A DNA stretch of 64,000 nucleotides from Escherichia coli (lineage in GTDB: Bacteria; Pseudomonadota; Gammaproteobacteria; Enterobacterales; Enterobacteriaceae): NCBI RefSeq assembly GCF_003334315.1, contig NZ_QOWR01000001.1; one strand, 5' to 3'. Under the pieces are notes generated by a model. The model made no database searches, was not told where the DNA came from, and saw only the letters and a list, made by a program, of their open reading frames with translations. How positions within the stretch are numbered: the stretch's first letter is position 1; each line of letters opens with the position of its first letter. Positions 11,074 to 62,651 of this stretch are shown here, piece by piece. A program made the position numbers and the translations under genes.

Positions 11074-11122
<49 letters not shown>

Positions 11123-12740: not shown

Positions 12741-12752
12741 TAACACTGACTG

Positions 12753-12840
12753 CCGGATGCGGCGTGACCGCCTTATCCGGCCTACGATTCGGGATGAATT
12801 AGTAGGCCGGATAAGACGCGTCAAGCATCGCATCCGGCAT
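12753..12840. repeat. BIME (two inverted REP units) between gntT and malQ
   Basis: GCCGGATGCGGCGTGACCGCCTTATCCGGCCTAC ... GTAGGCCGGATAAGACGCGTCAAGCATCGCATCCGGCA. Confidence 0.85.
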
Positions 12841-12850
12841 CAACCGCACT

Positions 12851-14935
12851 CTACTTCTTCTTCGCTGCAGCTCTGCGGCGTCTGTCCAAATCCTTCAGCA
12901 ACTTGTTCACGCCATCATCGGCAAACATCGACTCAAGCGTTGCGGAAAGCTTGCGTCGCCAGTTTTTATACTGGTAACTGGTGCCAGGAATATTCACCGG
13001 TTCGGCCATATCCAGCCAGTCTTCCGGCTGTAGTCCTAACAGAGCACTGTTACTGTCGGCAATGTAGCGCTGCAAACCTCGATTAAGCGTCGGCGTCATC
13101 GACATCAACGATGCCTTATGCCCGGCACGTTTTGGCAGGCAACCATATTTATGCAGAGCATCCAGCAGTCCTTGTTTCGCCAGTTCACGATCCTGATACA
13201 GACCGCGCAGTACCACTTCATCCGGATACAGCCCCAGGGTTTTGCCCAGCGTTAGATCCCCGCTCTCCCAGTAGCCGCGTAGCGTAGGCAGGTCATGTGT
13301 CGCCGCAACCGCCATCGACTGCTCCGGATACGCTTTCGGTGCACGGAACGTCTTCTCGTGGTCGTTTTCGAAATAGAGCACTTTGTAGGAGTACACACCG
13401 CTGCTGCGCAGCTTACCGACAATCTCTACCGGTACGGTACCGAGATCTTCACCAATCACCATACAGCGATGACGTTTACTTTCGAGTGCCAGAATCGAGA
13501 GCAGATCATCCACCGGATAGTGAACATACGCGCCCTGATCTGCCGTCTCGCCATACGGTATCCACCACAAACGCAGCATCGACATCACATGGTCAATTCG
13601 TAATGCGCCGCAGTTTTGCATATTGGCACGCAACAGCTCGATAAACGGTTCATAGGCACGCGCGGTGATGATATGCGGGTCCATTGGCGGTAATCCCCAG
13701 TTCTGCCCCAACGGGCCGAGGATATCCGGCGGCGCGCCAACCGACGCTTTCAGGCAATATAGTTCACGGTCACACCAGGTTTCCGCCCCACCTTCCGCTA
13801 CGCCAACCGCCAGATCACGATACAAGCCAATCGGCATTTCATAGCCCTGGCTTATCTCCCAGCAGGCGGCAAACTGGCTGTAAGCCAGCCACTGCAACCA
13901 GAGATAAAAATCGACGTCATCACGATGTTCTTCGCAGAACTGACGCACTTCTGGTGAATCCACGTTCTGATACATCTCTGGCCATGCAGGCCAGCCCCAG
14001 CGCATTTCGTCCTCTTTCACTTGCTGGGCATGTAGCGCATCAAAGGCTGCCTGCCAGAACAGGCTGTCGCCCTGCTCTGCAACAAACTGGCGAAACGCGG
14101 TCATCTGCTCATCATCACGTTGCGCGAAACCTTTCCACGCCATTCGTAATGCTGTCATTTTTAGGGCGGTAACCGTGGAGTAATCGACCCAGTCGGCATC
14201 GCGCGCCTGTTGCAGCGTCTGTTGCGTGGTCGGCAACTGCCACCAGGCCTGAGCCTCTTCGCTAAGATGGAAATCTTCAACGGCGTTAACGTCGATATAA
14301 ATCACATTCAGCCAACGGCGAGAAGACGGGCTGTATGGGCTGGCACTCTCCGGATTTGCCGGATAGAGCGCATGAATCGGGTTCAGGCCGATGAACGACC
14401 CGCCACGTTTTGCCACATCCACCAGCATCGCTTTGAGATCGCCAAAATCCCCAATACCCCAGTTTTTTTCCGATCGCAGCGTATAAAGCTGAACGCAGGC
14501 ACCCCACAGCTTTTGTTTATTCAGCAACGCCTGCGGTTCGTAACAGCGTTTCGGGGCGACAATCACCCGGCAATGCGCGCGCTGGTCGTCCTGGGTGAGT
14601 GTCAGCGTGTGATAACCTTCCGGCAGCTTCGTCGGTAGATTGAACGCTTTGCCCCCAGTTACATGGCCTTTGTACTGCGTTCCTTCTTCGGTGGTCAGCA
14701 GCCAGCTATATTCGCCGCTGCCCTCCACCACCATCGGCATTTTTTTGCCGCTGGTATAAACCATGACATTCGGGACTGGCGTTACCGCCACTTTCGTGGC
14801 GGTACGTTGATGCATCGCGTCAAGCAAACGCCGTTTGGTTTCGGCGCTAATCGACTGCGGTTTACCGTGGGCATTGATGTAATTGGGGCTAATCCCCGCC
14901 GCCAGCGCGGCATTATCCAGACGTTTGCTTTCCAT
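12851..14935 (-). CDS. malQ: 4-alpha-glucanotransferase (amylomaltase) MalQ
   Basis: 694-aa ORF MESKRLDNAALAAGISPNYINAHGKPQ... Confidence 0.96.
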   Translation of the reverse strand: MESKRLDNAALAAGISPNYINAHGKPQSISAETKRRLLDAMHQRTATKVAVTPVPNVMVYTSGKKMPMVVEGSGEYSWLLTTEEGTQYKGHVTGGKAFNLPTKLPEGYHTLTLTQDDQRAHCRVIVAPKRCYEPQALLNKQKLWGACVQLYTLRSEKNWGIGDFGDLKAMLVDVAKRGGSFIGLNPIHALYPANPESASPYSPSSRRWLNVIYIDVNAVEDFHLSEEAQAWWQLPTTQQTLQQARDADWVDYSTVTALKMTALRMAWKGFAQRDDEQMTAFRQFVAEQGDSLFWQAAFDALHAQQVKEDEMRWGWPAWPEMYQNVDSPEVRQFCEEHRDDVDFYLWLQWLAYSQFAACWEISQGYEMPIGLYRDLAVGVAEGGAETWCDRELYCLKASVGAPPDILGPLGQNWGLPPMDPHIITARAYEPFIELLRANMQNCGALRIDHVMSMLRLWWIPYGETADQGAYVHYPVDDLLSILALESKRHRCMVIGEDLGTVPVEIVGKLRSSGVYSYKVLYFENDHEKTFRAPKAYPEQSMAVAATHDLPTLRGYWESGDLTLGKTLGLYPDEVVLRGLYQDRELAKQGLLDALHKYGCLPKRAGHKASLMSMTPTLNRGLQRYIADSNSALLGLQPEDWLDMAEPVNIPGTSYQYKNWRRKLSATLESMFADDGVNKLLKDLDRRRRAAAKKK

Positions 14936-23132: not shown

Positions 23133-24731
23133 ATGCGTAAAACAGTGGCTTTTGGCTTTGTCGGTACCGTACTGGATTATGCCGGGCGCGGCAGTCAGCG
23201 CTGGTCAAAATGGCGTCCGACACTCTGTTTATGCCAGCAAGAATCGTTGGTCATCGATCGACTGGAATTGTTGCACGACGCCCGCTCGCGCTCGCTATTT
23301 GAAACGCTTAAACGCGATATCGCCAGCGTTTCGCCAGAAACAGAAGTGGTGAGCGTTGAGATTGAACTGCATAACCCGTGGGATTTCGAAGAGGTCTACG
23401 CCTGCCTGCATGATTTCGCCCGTGGTTACGAGTTTCAGCCAGAAAAAGAAGACTATTTAATTCACATCACCACCGGTACCCACGTCGCGCAGATTTGCTG
23501 GTTTCTGCTGGCAGAAGCGCGTTACCTGCCCGCCCGGCTGATACAATCTTCACCTCCGCGCAAAAAAGAACAGCCGCGCGGCCCAGGTGAAGTAACGATT
23601 ATCGATCTCGATTTAAGCCGTTATAACGCCATCGCCAGCCGCTTTGCCGAGGAACGCCAGCAAACGCTTGATTTTCTTAAGTCCGGCATTGCCACGCGTA
23701 ACCCCCACTTCAACCGCATGATTGAGCAGATCGAAAAAGTGGCGATCAAATCCCGCGCGCCGATTCTGCTTAACGGTCCAACCGGCGCGGGCAAGTCATT
23801 TCTGGCGCGACGCATCTTCGAGTTAAAACAGGCGCGGCATCAGTTTAGCGGCGCGTTTGTGGAAGTGAACTGCGCCACCCTGCGCGGCGATACCGCCATG
23901 TCGACGCTGTTTGGTCATGTAAAAGGCGCGTTTACCGGGGCGCGGGAATCTCGTGAAGGTTTATTACGCAGCGCCAACGGCGGAATGTTGTTTCTTGATG
24001 AGATTGGCGAACTGGGCGCAGACGAACAAGCAATGCTGCTAAAAGCCATTGAAGAGAAAACCTTTTACCCGTTTGGCAGCGATCGCCAGGTGAGCAGTGA
24101 TTTTCAGCTTATCGCCGGAACGGTGCGCGATTTGCGCCAGCTGGTTGCCGAAGGCAAATTCCGCGAAGATCTGTACGCGCGGATCAATCTCTGGACCTTC
24201 ACCCTGCCGGGGCTACGCCAGCGCCAGGAAGATATTGAACCTAACCTGGATTATGAAGTGGAGCGCCACGCCTCACTCACCGGCGACAGCGTGCGTTTTA
24301 ACACCGAAGCGCGGCGTGCCTGGTTGGCTTTTGCGACCTCTCCCCAGGCAACATGGCGCGGTAACTTTCGCGAACTTTCTGCCAGCGTCACGCGGATGGC
24401 CACCTTTGCCACTAGCGGACGCATCACTCTGGACGTGGTTGAAGATGAGATAAACCGTCTGCGCTATAACTGGCAGGAGAGCCGCCCCTCCGCGCTTACG
24501 GCGTTGCTGGGCGCAGAGGCAGAAAACATCGATCTCTTCGACCGTATGCAACTGGAACACGTTATCGCTATCTGCCGCCAGGCAAAGTCGCTTTCCGCAG
24601 CCGGACGCCAGCTTTTTGACGTTTCGCGCCAGGGCAAAGCCAGCGTCAATGACGCGGATCGGCTACGCAAATACCTGGCGCGTTTTGGTCTGACGTGGGA
24701 AGCCGTGCAGGATCAGCACAGCTCCAGTTGA
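23133..24731 (+). CDS. rtcR: Sigma-54-dependent transcriptional activator RtcR (N-terminal CARF-type sensor, AAA+ core)
   Basis: 532-aa ORF; AAA+ Walker A GPTGAGKS and GAFTGA motif (HVKGAFTGA); divergent from rtcBA. Confidence 0.93.
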
Positions 24732-25471
24732 ATATGGTGGTCCGTCAGCACCTGCATCACGCTTACTGGCGGCGGGGCGTCGGTGTAGACGGCATCTACC
24801 ATGCTGATGCTGCCCATATTGACCATCGCGTTACGGCCAAATTTCGAGTGATCGACAACCAGCATAACGTGGCGCGAGTTCTCAATAATGGCGCGTTTGG
24901 TGCGAACTTCGTGGTAATCGAACTCCAGCAGCGAGCCGTCGCTATCGATGCCGCTTATCCCCAGAATGCCGAAATCAAGGCGGAACTGGGAGATAAAATC
25001 GAGCGTCGCTTCGCCAATGATCCCGCCATCGCGGCTGCGTAATTCGCCACCGGCGAGAATAATGCGGAAATCTTCTTTTACCATCAACGTGTTAGCAACA
25101 TTGAGATTGTTGGTGACAATACGCAAATTGCTGTGATTAAGCAGCGCGTGCGCCACCGCTTCCGGCGTGGTGCCGATATCGATAAACAGTGTCGAGCCAT
25201 TGGGGATTTGCTCCGCCACTTTGCGGGCAATCCTCTCTTTTTCTTCGGTCTGGGTGGCTTTACGATCGTGCCACGGCGTGTTAACCGAACTGGAAGGCAG
25301 CGCCGCACCGCCATGGTGACGCAGGATCAGGTTTTGCTCCGCCAGCTCATTGAGGTCGCGGCGAATAGTCTGCGGGCTGACGGAGAAATGCTCTACCAGC
25401 TCTTCAGTACTGACATAACCCTGCTGTTTAACCAGTTCGATAATACCGTTGTGACGTTGTGTTTGTTTCAT
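24713..25471 (-). CDS. glpR: DeoR-family glycerol-3-phosphate repressor GlpR
   Basis: 252-aa ORF MKQTQRHNGIIELVKQQGYVSTEELVEHF...; 3' end overlaps rtcR 3' end. Confidence 0.95.
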   Translation of the reverse strand: MKQTQRHNGIIELVKQQGYVSTEELVEHFSVSPQTIRRDLNELAEQNLILRHHGGAALPSSSVNTPWHDRKATQTEEKERIARKVAEQIPNGSTLFIDIGTTPEAVAHALLNHSNLRIVTNNLNVANTLMVKEDFRIILAGGELRSRDGGIIGEATLDFISQFRLDFGILGISGIDSDGSLLEFDYHEVRTKRAIIENSRHVMLVVDHSKFGRNAMVNMGSISMVDAVYTDAPPPVSVMQVLTDHHIQLELC

Positions 25472-26878: not shown

Positions 26879-28384
26879 ATGGAAACCAAAGATCTGATTG
26901 TGATAGGGGGCGGCATCAATGGTGCTGGTATCGCGGCAGACGCCGCTGGACGCGGTTTATCCGTGCTGATGCTGGAGGCGCAGGATCTCGCTTGCGCGAC
27001 CTCTTCCGCCAGTTCAAAACTCATTCACGGTGGCCTGCGCTACCTTGAGCACTATGAATTCCGCCTGGTCAGCGAGGCGCTGGCTGAACGTGAAGTGCTG
27101 CTGAAAATGGCCCCGCATATCGCCTTCCCGATGCGTTTTCGCCTGCCACATCGTCCGCATCTGCGCCCGGCGTGGATGATTCGCATTGGTCTGTTTATGT
27201 ACGATCATCTGGGTAAACGCACCAGCTTGCCGGGATCAACTGGTTTGCGTTTTGGCGCAAATTCAGTGTTAAAACCGGAAATTAAGCGCGGATTCGAATA
27301 TTCTGACTGTTGGGTAGACGACGCCCGTCTGGTACTCGCCAACGCCCAGATGGTGGTGCGTAAAGGCGGCGAAGTGCTTACTCGGACTCGCGCCACCTCT
27401 GCTCGCCGCGAAAACGGCCTGTGGATTGTGGAAGCGGAAGATATCGATACCGGCAAAAAATATAGCTGGCAAGCGCGCGGCCTGGTTAACGCCACCGGCC
27501 CGTGGGTGAAACAGTTCTTCGACGACGGGATGCATCTGCCTTCGCCTTATGGCATTCGCCTGATCAAAGGCAGCCATATTGTGGTGCCGCGCGTGCATAC
27601 CCAAAAGCAGGCCTACATTCTGCAAAACGAAGATAAACGCATTGTGTTCGTGATCCCGTGGATGGACGAGTTTTCCATCATCGGCACCACCGATGTGGAA
27701 TACAAAGGTGATCCGAAAGCAGTGAAGATTGAAGAGAGTGAAATCAATTACCTGCTGAAAGTGTATAACGCGCACTTTAAAAAACAGCTTAGCCGTGACG
27801 ATATCGTCTGGACCTACTCCGGTGTGCGTCCGCTGTGTGATGATGAGTCCGACTCGCCGCAGGCTATTACCCGTGATTACACCCTTGATATCCATGATGA
27901 AAACGGCAAAGCACCGCTGCTGTCGGTATTCGGCGGTAAGCTGACCACCTACCGAAAACTGGCAGAACATGCGCTGGAAAAACTGACGCCGTATTATCAG
28001 GGTATTGGCCCGGCGTGGACGAAAGAGAGCGTGCTGCCGGGTGGTGCCATTGAAGGCGACCGCGACGATTACGCCGCTCGCCTGCGCCGCCGTTACCCGT
28101 TCCTGACTGAATCGCTGGCACGTCACTACGCGCGCACTTACGGCAGCAACAGCGAGCTGCTGCTCGGCAATGCGGGAACGGTAAGCGATCTCGGGGAAGA
28201 TTTCGGTCATGAGTTCTACGAAGCGGAACTGAAATACCTGGTGGATCACGAATGGGTCCGCCGCACCGACGATGCCCTGTGGCGTCGCACAAAACAAGGC
28301 ATGTGGCTAAATGCGGATCAACAATCTCGTGTGAGTCAGTGGCTGGTGGAGTATACGCAGCAGAGGTTATCGCTGGCGTCGTAA
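26879..28384 (+). CDS. glpD: Aerobic glycerol-3-phosphate dehydrogenase GlpD
   Basis: Track ORF 26864..28384; recognised start METKDLIVIGGGINGAGIAADAAGRG (FAD-binding GxGxxG). Confidence 0.95.
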   Translation: METKDLIVIGGGINGAGIAADAAGRGLSVLMLEAQDLACATSSASSKLIHGGLRYLEHYEFRLVSEALAEREVLLKMAPHIAFPMRFRLPHRPHLRPAWMIRIGLFMYDHLGKRTSLPGSTGLRFGANSVLKPEIKRGFEYSDCWVDDARLVLANAQMVVRKGGEVLTRTRATSARRENGLWIVEAEDIDTGKKYSWQARGLVNATGPWVKQFFDDGMHLPSPYGIRLIKGSHIVVPRVHTQKQAYILQNEDKRIVFVIPWMDEFSIIGTTDVEYKGDPKAVKIEESEINYLLKVYNAHFKKQLSRDDIVWTYSGVRPLCDDESDSPQAITRDYTLDIHDENGKAPLLSVFGGKLTTYRKLAEHALEKLTPYYQGIGPAWTKESVLPGGAIEGDRDDYAARLRRRYPFLTESLARHYARTYGSNSELLLGNAGTVSDLGEDFGHEFYEAELKYLVDHEWVRRTDDALWRRTKQGMWLNADQQSRVSQWLVEYTQQRLSLAS

Positions 28385-28447
28385 ATTAACGTAAGGTGAT
28401 CAGGTCAGATTTCAATCTGGCCTGAGACTGATGACAAACACAAAACT

Positions 28448-28546
28448 GCCTGATGCGCTACGCTTATCAGGCCTACGTGGTTTATGCAATATATTGAATT
28501 TGCATGGTCTTGTAGGCCAGATAAGACGTTCACGTCGCATCCGGCA
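28448..28546. repeat. BIME (two REP units flanking an IHF-like palindrome) between glpD and yzgL
   Basis: GCCTGATGCGCTACGCTTATCAGGCCTAC ... ATGCAATATATTGAATTTGCAT ... GTAGGCCAGATAAGACGTTCACGTCGCATCCGGCA. Confidence 0.85.
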
Positions 28547-28589
28547 TGAACAAAGCGCACTTTGTCAAAAATCTAACCTACTTTTTAAT

Positions 28590-28883
28590 TCAGGGAATTA
28601 CCGCAAAGCCCACGCCATCATACCCAACGTAACAAAACTCAGGCACGTTCCCCACTCGCCCCGAGAAAAATAGCATTAATGCGCCCAGCGCCAGCATAAA
28701 AATTTTGAGCAGAAGGTAAATTGTTGGCGTGATAAGGATATTACAAACTTCAATAATACCGGCAAGTCCGACACCCAGCATGGCAATAACCACCGCCAAA
28801 AATTGCGCCAGTATGGGGATGCCGAAAAAAGTCATTACCAGCGAGGTCAAAATCCATTTTCTGTTTTGCATTATTCTTTCCAT
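28590..28883 (-). CDS. yzgL: Small hydrophobic ORF (YzgL-like), possibly non-functional
   Basis: 97-aa ORF in glpD-glgP gap; strongly hydrophobic; weak coding confidence. Confidence 0.4.
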   Translation of the reverse strand: MERIMQNRKWILTSLVMTFFGIPILAQFLAVVIAMLGVGLAGIIEVCNILITPTIYLLLKIFMLALGALMLFFSGRVGNVPEFCYVGYDGVGFAVIP

Positions 28884-28998
28884 TCTTTTTGAATGGTGAA
28901 ATTATACTCCCCGAGTCCCCTTGCCCCTTCTGGACACTTTTCCGAAATGATGGCGAAAAAAACGGGACCCTTTGGCCCCGTTCTATTTATTAGTGAAA

Positions 28999-31464
<2,466 letters not shown>

Positions 31465-54998: not shown

Positions 54999-55019
54999 TA
55001 CGGTTAATTCCTGAACTGT

Positions 55020-55086
55020 GCCGGATGCGCTTCGCTTATCCGGCCTACACGCGATGCCAGGTCAGATAAGCGAAACGCATCCGACA
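55020..55086. repeat. BIME/REP pair between ugpA and ugpB
   Basis: GCCGGATGCGCTTCGCTTATCCGGCCTAC plus a degenerate inverted copy. Confidence 0.7.
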
Positions 55087-55095
55087 TTACACTGA

Positions 55096-56549: not shown

Positions 56550-56649
56550 GCGGTGACGGCGTGGGTGAGGGAAAATGGGAGATGGGGCACGGATAAGCGG
56601 AAAAATAGAAGGTCTGAATCAAACTCTACAGATTACTCATCGTTTCATG

Positions 56650-56748
56650 CCAGATGCGGCGTAAACGCCTTATCCGGCCTACAAGATCGTGCAAATTCAA
56701 TATATTGCAACTCACCCAGTAGGCCTGATAAGCGCAGCGCATCAGGCA
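56650..56748. repeat. BIME (two REP units plus IHF-like palindrome) between ugpB and livF
   Basis: GCCAGATGCGGCGTAAACGCCTTATCCGGCCTAC ... GCAAATTCAATATATTGCAA ... GTAGGCCTGATAAGCGCAGCGCATCAGGCA. Confidence 0.85.
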
Positions 56749-56808
56749 ATTTTACATTTGTCACCTGTCTCAAAGGAGTCTTTTGACTCCTTATCAATCA
56801 ACGTGTTA

Positions 56809-62452: not shown

Positions 62453-62493
62453 TCGTCAAGTTTGATTTCAAAAGTGATGACCAACGAGAAATT

Positions 62494-62593
<100 letters not shown>

Positions 62594-62651
62594 TGAAGCA
62601 ACGTACTCGATATTAGCAATTTGGCGGCAACCCAAAGATGCCGATTAATGA

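Follow-up and report, generated by a model that had tools for sequence, protein, structure and literature searches.

The DNA analysed here (hereafter the window) is a 64,000-nt stretch of an Escherichia coli chromosome that runs from envZ to livJ and is colinear with 3.535-3.599 Mb of MG1655, and its glpD-yzgL gap carries, at 28448-28546, two inverted repetitive extragenic palindrome (REP) units separated by an AT-rich linker. Our results support the assignment of this element to BIME-1, one of the families of bacterial interspersed mosaic elements (BIMEs), as an ordinary member of an already known kind with nothing new about it as an instance; BIME-1 repeats, which are said to have been named RIB (reiterative ihf BIME) by Boccard and Prentki in 1993 and RIP by Oppenheim et al. 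in 1993, have appeared in catalogues of E. coli K-12 repeats for three decades. The glpD copy is very probably a non-autonomous REP-doublet mobile repeat lying at a terminator, which would act through DNA bent by integration host factor (IHF) and through an RNA hairpin. We also propose tentatively, as a real possibility rather than a probability, that BIME-1 units integrate at the foot of a terminator stem and duplicate the entire hairpin, a structure-defined target duplication of 17-30 bp that would make the unit a part of the 3′ untranslated region (UTR), with a regenerated terminator downstream of it. Mobile identity and origin are established at the level of the family and carry over to the glpD copy partly by inference.

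The BIME-1 copy lies between the glpD stop codon (28384) and yzgL (from 28590, minus strand) and is extragenic, in the glpD 3′ UTR before the convergent yzgL and glgP genes; the unit begins 39 nt and its first REP 64 nt from the stop codon. REPs were taken to be imperfect palindromes of ~30-37 nt of the form GCC(G/T)GATGCG...CTTATC(A/C)GGCCTAC with a GTAG/CTAC foot, and were scored with the split consensus GCCKGATGCG...CTTATCMGGCCTAC, which has 24 specified positions, at up to five mismatches in the loosest setting. Shuffled windows gave 0-2 matches at that setting, and the true REPs of the window have 0 or 1 mismatch, a weak single REP with 4 mismatches at 11087-11122 in the nfuA-gntT gap excepted. 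Such formal scoring had been named beforehand as the check on the preliminary description of this element, and the two flagged REPs, both of which end in GGCCTAC, came through it with 0 and 1 mismatch. The parts of the glpD copy and its immediate surroundings are:

28400-28425, plus strand: hairpin TCAGGTCAGATT-TC-AATCTGGCCTGA, an inverted repeat 16 nt past the glpD stop codon, with no T-run
28423-28447, plus strand: 25-nt left flank TGAGACTGATGACAAACACAAAACT, following the family consensus; paralogous BLAST matches begin at ~28424
28448-28476, plus strand: short, z1-type REP of 29 nt, GCCTGATGCGCTACGCTTATCAGGCCTAC, with 0 mismatches to the REP consensus
28477-28511, no strand assigned: 35-nt L linker, with ATGCAATATATTGAATTTGCAT at 28484-28505 and the core TGCAATATATTGAATTTGCA at 28485-28504
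28487-28499, minus strand: IHF-consensus match ATTCAATATATTG, 12/13 to WATCAANNNNTTR
28512-28546, minus strand: y-type REP of 35 nt, GCCGGATGCGACGTGAACGTCTTATCTGGCCTAC, with 1 mismatch, inverted relative to z1
28547-28575, plus strand: 29-nt right flank TGAACAAAGCGCACTTTGTCAAAAATCTA, following the family consensus and forming an inverted repeat with the left side
28576-28588, plus strand: ACCTACTTTTTAA, in which ACCT, an apparent remnant of the hairpin 3′ arm, is followed by a T-run

A BIME-1 is defined as one z1 and one y REP, inverted and in single copy, with a long conserved linker L that often has an IHF site, and a BIME-2 as y and z2 REPs with short linkers in tandem arrays (PMC3333891; PMC2817692). 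The glpD copy is a z1 REP, a 35-nt L and an inverted y REP in a single unit at the 3′ end of an operon, and the BIME-1 layout that the preliminary description had read from it is upheld. It shares with other BIME-1 (RIB/RIP) copies the inverted z1 and y, the single unit, the conserved IHF-consensus linker, the 3′-end site and extra flank motifs, and has no structural difference from them; what is added here is the bracketing of units by duplicated terminator hairpins. BIME-2 elements belong to the same REP superfamily and are likewise intergenic, but the glpD copy differs from them by its short z1 REP in place of z2, its 35-nt L linker in place of a short S linker and its single unit in place of a tandem array. 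The z1 and y assignments are inferred from the pairing of the short REP with L together with the text definition in PMC3333891, and the recollected label Z2 for the short REP was dropped because in 111 of 123 family copies the short type pairs with L, which makes it z1 by the published definition.

This family sample was drawn from one representative genome per species with the pattern GGCCTAC-N7-12-CAATNTNNTGANTT-N7-12-TTGTAGGCC, which matched at least 120 loci, and comprises the 120 copies among the matches listed and the three of the window. The hosts among the matches listed are E. albertii, E. whittamii, E. coli-level and other Escherichia, and three Pseudocitrobacter species. The short REP lies on the expected side in 111/123 copies, the long y REP on the other in 110/123, and both in 104/123; the linker is 35 nt long in 92/123. 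The glpD linker and the 74 distinct family linkers have the core TGCAATATATTGAATTTGCA in common, and core positions that the pattern leaves free are 65-96% conserved among these 74. Within E. coli the linker is dispersed, with a median of 22 places per genome and 37 to at least 40 in K-12-like genomes, and a 221-nt query of the glpD site finds matches in all 5426 of 5426 complete E. coli genomes at a median of 19 places per genome (maximum at least 40). Escherichia-type BIME-1 copies were also seen on very short contigs labelled Desulfosporosinus, Methylobacterium, Alkalicoccobacillus and a Collinsella metagenome-assembled genome (L046, L079, L111, L126-L128), and their presence in these unrelated assemblies is most likely contamination.

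The repeat is longer than the REP pair. Paralogous BLAST matches to the glpD copy (e.g. at narP-ccmH and fepA-entD) span ~28424-28577, past the REPs, and the flanks of 98 copies anchored at their REP ends give consensuses of 25 nt on the left, TGAGACTGATGACAAACGCAAAATT, and 29 nt on the right, TGAACAAAGCGCACTTTGTCAnCAATCTG, beyond which conservation falls to zero. The full unit is thus ~153 bp, 28423-28575 in the window. The two flank consensuses, TGAGACTGATGACAAA... and ...TTTGTCAnCAATCTG, are imperfectly complementary, and judged by these aligned copies the unit ends would be imperfect terminal inverted repeats; at glpD the reverse complement of the right flank is similar to the left flank (AGAYTGnTGACAAA). 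The 25-nt and 29-nt flanks are, we presume, probably the "A" and "B" extra motifs of the original BIME description, and we know of no transposase that binds them.

Outside these ends, many BIME-1 units stand between two copies, in direct orientation, of a GC-rich hairpin that is specific to the locus, such as AAGCCTCCGCTTGCGGAGGCTT (locus L061), AAACCTCGCGATGCGAGGTTT (L078) and AGCCACTTCTTTTGGGAAGTGG (L097). On the z1 side the hairpin copy adjoins TGAGAC and often has an A-run before it; on the y side it adjoins ...CAATCTG and a T-run comes after it. Flank statistics were computed after removal of likely orthologous duplicates, which left 77 copies for repeats and 74 for hairpins. With the left flank of one locus paired with the right flank of another as control (99th percentile score 9-10), 23 of the 77 copies (nine Escherichia and 14 Pseudocitrobacter) have a flanking direct repeat above the control percentile, where fewer than one is expected, and the top score is 28. 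These repeats are 12-30 nt long, are mostly hairpins and adjoin both unit ends. Strong hairpins, defined as at most -10 kcal/mol in 34 nt, occur at the left end of 34/74 copies and the right end of 32/74, as against 8/74 and 4/74 in control windows 66-100 nt away. The left flank has 36 A-runs vs 11 T-runs and the right flank 32 T-runs vs 10 A-runs.

Such pairs might have another origin: units could have been retained at terminators, and the hairpin pairs could stem from local tandem duplication or from recombination of convergent terminators, so that they would not be target duplications at all. Convergent genes do flank many copies, a setting in which two terminators are to be expected, and the two hairpin copies are frequently unlike in the loop. 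We nevertheless regard this origin as very unlikely, since in the best cases (L061, L076, L078, L097 and L059) the two copies, in direct orientation, agree at every one of 17-23 nt, asymmetric loops included, as unrelated convergent terminators would not be; the observed scores rise far above the mismatched-pair percentile, and the empty alleles described below have exactly one hairpin for both genes. That the second hairpin is an inverted or fold-back copy was likewise ruled out by the direct orientation of the asymmetric loops, and at narP and aspC reverse complementarity does not account for the altered loops. In the filled alleles of these two loci both copies have the same stem and one loop is the A/T-richer (CATCA vs GATTTAT at narP, TGAAAA vs ATTAAAA at aspC).

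Empty alleles were predicted by deleting the unit and one hairpin copy in silico and were then searched for in the 5426 complete genomes. They were found at three of the three loci tested, aspC-gloC, uvrB-yvcK and narP-ccmH. Each empty allele has a single hairpin and T-run, and each filled allele has hairpin, unit, second hairpin copy and T-run in that order. The empty allele of aspC-gloC reads ...AATGAAGCCCGCTGAAAAGCGGGCTTTTTTATG..., and in its filled allele that hairpin is followed by GAGACTGATGAC...AGAAATCCA, next by GGCCCGCATTAAAAGCGGGCT and finally by TTTTTATG. The narP-ccmH filled allele is 176 bp longer and contains the hairpin twice; at uvrB-yvcK one filled lineage has both hairpin copies and another is without the proximal copy. 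In our numbering the family copies are L018-L137 (e.g. L062, L076, L059) and the allele pairs are L138/L139, L140/L141 and L142/L143.

At glpD itself, the hairpin at 28400-28425 adjoins the left end of the unit with a 3-nt overlap and is paired in the RNA fold, and we read it as the glpD terminator stem, i.e. the proximal target copy. The terminal AATCTA of the unit and the distal ACCT together repeat AATCTGGCCT of this hairpin, so 28576-28588 would be the displaced tail of the glpD terminator, a weaker case than at the other loci; no terminator-like site scored in 28100-29100. The livF copy described below has the geometry of the family, with a proximal hairpin without T-run and a diverged distal copy, and the panZ-livJ copy has no traces of a duplicated hairpin. 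The target duplications and filled/empty alleles that characterise miniature inverted-repeat transposable elements (MITEs) are thus found across the family and are only partly visible at glpD.

Taken together, these observations point to a mechanism in which BIME-1 units land directly next to intrinsic-terminator hairpins, and insertion would leave the target hairpin on either side of the unit, its gene-proximal copy without a T-run and its distal copy still with one. By its flanks, the glpD unit would have arrived by insertion at the glpD terminator. Because the whole stem-loop is duplicated, the length of the target duplication would be set by structure (17-30 bp) and not by a fixed stagger; such a duplication would result if both strands were cut, with a stagger, at the two feet of an extruded palindrome and then filled in. 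If the proposal is true, it points to this kind of structure-directed cleavage on either side of the palindrome. The single-strand chemistry of Y1 (IS200/IS605-type) transposases would not duplicate a 17-30-bp hairpin.

This last point bears on the idea that the IHF site serves the element itself, bending between the REPs aiding the folding or processing of the doublet by a REP-associated Y1 transposase, akin to the IHF sites that other transposable elements have at their ends or inside them. The MITE-like features (apparent imperfect terminal inverted repeats, flanking target duplications and filled/empty polymorphism) are in keeping with it, as are the Correia elements of Neisseria, which have a functional IHF site whose role is unknown (PMC2229807), and BIME-like DNA is a substrate of TnpA(REP), which cuts it in the linkers (PMC3333891). 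However, the in vitro substrate of TnpA(REP) is single-stranded DNA (PMC3333891) and that of IHF is duplex, no experiment ties IHF to REP mobility, and a 17-30-bp hairpin duplication is unlike known Y1 transposition, and so we consider it quite unlikely.

No description of hairpin duplication around BIME-1 was found in the searchable literature, the 1990s primary papers apart, and a prior description in those papers is possible. A 2011 review holds that MITE signatures are missing from REPs, a March 2026 preprint that the way in which REP/BIME insertion occurs in vivo is not established and semi-random insertion is assumed, and the TnpA(REP) paper is silent on target duplications and empty sites (PMC3333891). 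Hairpin-bracketed units and single-hairpin empty alleles give defined junctions, a target rule (terminator stems) and natural filled/empty pairs, which are material for testing enzymes such as TnpA(REP). If terminator targeting is true, it would account for BIME-1 lying at 3′ ends of transcription units with no appeal to host-function selection, and it predicts that insertion rewires 3′ UTRs with termination preserved. If true and undescribed, it would provide enterobacterial REP/BIME insertion with its first concrete rule for target sites and its first junction structure, and the hairpin duplication, if not in the older literature, would be a testable clue to this long-open question.

How a unit may act once in place can be considered at the level of DNA and of RNA. 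The IHF consensus WATCAANNNNTTR is matched at 12/13 positions in all three BIME-1 copies of the window, at 28487-28499 in the glpD copy, at 56695-56707 (plus strand) in the second and at 62534-62546 (minus strand; AATCAGTAAATTG) in the third, in each case at the homologous position of the linker and in the same orientation when the unit is read from y to z1. IHF binding to L of other BIME-1 copies is cited in passages of PMC3333891 and PMC2817692 and in the 2011 review, and the main text of a published IHF chromatin immunoprecipitation sequencing (ChIP-seq) study makes no mention of REPs. Binding at the three window copies is a prediction, under which the AT-rich core of L in duplex DNA would be an IHF site that bends the helix sharply between the REPs, as the literature on the family suggests. 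In RNA, the glpD unit would be co-transcribed with glpD, and its z1 and y REPs would pair in a long hairpin that blocks 3′-to-5′ exonucleases and, partly via Rho, attenuates read-through into the convergent genes. The fold of 28385-28589 has an energy of -71.2 kcal/mol (z = -6.7). In it z1 and y pair as a single long hairpin and the upstream hairpin forms on its own; a fold of the family alignment has the same z1:y pairing. The O157 ortholog of the y REP has changes that keep or improve the stem, e.g. GACGT/ACGTC to GGCGT/ACGCC. Transcribed REPs are described as 3′-end stabilisers and partial Rho-dependent terminators (preprint 10.64898/2026.03.23.713779 among the sources).

Several observations weigh against these interpretations. 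About 70% of the copies are without a clear flanking repeat, which decay or a different history may explain. At glpD the distal hairpin copy is reduced to ACCT and the T-run, so the duplication model needs a secondary deletion there, conjecturally between two CAATCTG repeats; moreover, a query with the synthetic glpD junction gave only filled sites or an unrelated haplotype and no empty allele. The "1-144" class of sequences, a candidate for that empty allele, was rejected as filled too. The pattern that defines the family sample fixes part of the linker, and the sampled copies are those among the matches listed. The IHF consensus has low discriminating power, with 72 matches across the window vs 51 expected, and the single mismatch is always ATTCAA for WATCAA, a feature of the family; because a consensus match is this common by chance, what carries the IHF claim is homology to a family in which binding was shown by others. 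The REP stems are nearly invariant and give no covariation to support z1:y pairing, and the linker palindrome shows none beyond shuffles among the 74 distinct linkers; with stems too conserved and a palindrome that does not covary, selection for the long hairpin is not demonstrated. The palindrome noted between the REPs in the preliminary description thus stands as a conserved sequence, with arms TGCAA/TTGCA and the 12/13 IHF match, and not as a stem maintained by compensatory change; conserved and non-covarying, it is more in keeping with a protein site than with a selected stem.

The alternative that gives the host the leading part is DNA architecture: IHF between the REPs, with gyrase, would make the element a topological insulator of the glpD and glg units, and its position would reflect selection and not insertion preference. 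BIMEs in an engineered cassette impede the diffusion of transcription-induced supercoils, as cited in a passage of PMC6907758, the L core is conserved across genera, and all three window copies lie at the 3′ ends of transcription units (after glpD, livF and panZ/livJ). The gyrase component, which the preliminary description had also suggested, is better placed with BIME-2: preferential gyrase binding and cleavage belong to BIME-2, whose affinity in vitro is higher than that of BIME-1 (PMC1475751) and in which genome-wide cleavage is enriched, with slight depletion at IHF sites (PMC6379681), and gyrase recruitment would not be expected as a main property of BIME-1. A model REP showed no chromosome-structuring role in Hi-C and nucleoid tests (preprint 10.64898/2026.03.23.713779), and the duplicated target hairpins and empty alleles are signs of insertion and not of selection in place.

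The distribution of the sites among strains tells against it as well. Comparison of presence and absence across strains had also been named beforehand as a check, and all three sites proved variable: counting a site as present in a genome that covers at least 80% of the query, the glpD site is found in 2127 of the 5426 genomes, the livF-ugpB site in 4630 and the panZ-livJ site in 3748. Since the sites occur in only 39-85% of E. coli genomes, with plain terminators at the same place in others, any architectural function is dispensable, and selection for architecture seems to us a rather unlikely account.

About 60% of the genomes carry another haplotype, whose divergence starts directly past the glpD stop codon, with a canonical, bidirectional-looking terminator GCCCGGTTGCGAAGTGCAACCGGGCTATTTG and intact hypothetical genes downstream (L004, L006-L009); K-12 yzgL looks like a remnant of this gene block. 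A third haplotype, seen in O157 among others, retains the BIME-1 and has a PstS-family gene in addition. Because E. whittamii and Escherichia sp. E1V33 carry the glpD copy too, it is old. The O157-like strain NZRM4165 has no BIME-1 at the livF-ugpB or panZ-livJ sites (L014:7064-8290 and 13928-14246); its ugpB-livF gap, as in O157-like strains generally, holds an additional TPR-repeat gene along with a plain terminator, and the ataT toxin gene lies directly downstream of panM. The unit-less alleles at the glpD and livF-ugpB sites have canonical terminators instead. Strain CP53 is 100% identical to the window at all three BIME-1 loci, and at the panZ-livJ copy K-12 strains have a 12-nt indel and 94.8% identity.

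Among related systems, the REPINs mobilised by RAYT/TnpA(REP) share with BIME-1 the inverted REPs, the single long hairpin, the non-autonomous state and presence/absence polymorphism. They differ in that the spacer of Pseudomonas REPINs is short and highly diverse, whereas that of BIME-1 is long and conserved, as are its flanks, and in that the available REPIN literature describes no target duplication, unlike the hairpin duplication of BIME-1. Class C bacterial group II introns insert right after the stem of intrinsic terminators; they are autonomous retroelements and do not duplicate the hairpin, so the analogy with BIME-1 is in target choice only. The Correia/NEMIS MITE of Neisseria duplicates a TA dinucleotide at its target and not a whole hairpin. 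It is unrelated to BIME-1 in sequence and not built of REPs, but its 155-bp form resembles BIME-1 in its size of ~150 bp, terminal inverted repeats (putative in BIME-1), intergenic location and RNA hairpin (PMC2229807). Its internal IHF site, demonstrated in vitro (PMC2229807), is a further likeness, to the predicted one of BIME-1.

The 19-mer GCAAATTCAATATATTGCA of the glpD linker occurs exactly twice in the window, at 28485-28503 (minus strand) and 56691-56709 (plus strand), against a shuffle expectation of 0.02 for a 19-mer repeat. The preliminary description had noted an AT-rich element between the REPs in both the glpD-yzgL and the ugpB-livF gap, and this shared 19-mer confirms it; a third copy, in the panZ-livJ gap, had been missed. 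The parts of the second and third units are:

56619-56772, minus strand: second BIME-1 unit, livF-ugpB gap, with the exact 19-mer between inverted REPs
56772-56748, minus strand: left flank of the second unit
56747-56719, minus strand: z1 REP of the second unit
56718-56683, minus strand: L linker of the second unit
56682-56648, in minus-strand order: y REP of the second unit
56647-56619, minus strand: right flank of the second unit, diverged
56773-56792, minus strand: hairpin AAGGAGTC-AAAA-GACTCCTT, right after the livF stop codon and adjoining the unit, with no T-run
62469-62622, plus strand: third BIME-1 unit, panZ-livJ gap, found by the REP scan
62494-62522, plus strand: z1 REP of the third unit, from the REP scan
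62523-62558, no strand assigned: linker of the third unit between its REPs, 36 nt, diverged
62559-62593, inverted relative to z1: y REP of the third unit, from the REP scan

Beyond the livF-ugpB unit, at ~56599-56618, lies a diverged second copy of its hairpin, followed by CTATTTTT. In strain N64 an IS3-family insertion sequence (IS) interrupts the loop of the livF-ugpB y REP (L015:1100-1150, equivalent to 56664 of the window) at the junction of GCGGCGTAA and TGAACTGAACCCC, and L043 has the same IS junction sequence inside another y REP. Insertion in the loop of y REPs is the behaviour reported for IS1397.

Two further REP pairs were found in the window:

12752-12838, inverted: gntT-malQ REP pair, REPs of 34 nt and 37 nt with a 16-nt linker
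55020-55087, inverted: ugpB-ugpA REP pair, a good REP at 55020-55048 and a degenerate partner at ~55059-55087

The first nearly fills the convergent gntT-malQ gap (12741-12850, 110 nt), has no flanking hairpins and, with its 16-nt linker and 37-nt second REP, resembles one BIME-2 unit. The second lies in the intercistronic gap at 54999-55095, the classic position for an intra-operon mRNA stabiliser. With the glpD-yzgL, livF-ugpB and panZ-livJ copies, these bear out the earlier observation that several intergenic gaps carry paired inverted REPs, which was, if anything, slightly understated.

Gene names in the window were confirmed against NC_000913.3. Relative to MG1655, the identity is mosaic (25-mer sharing of 0.58-1.0 per 2-kb block), IS1E is absent from yrhA (window 47900-48300), and glpR is an intact open reading frame of 252 codons at 24713-25471. 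Rfam has no family covering REP/BIME-1 repeats, and the only Rfam match at the gathering level in the window is the small RNA RyhB (45787-45851, minus strand).

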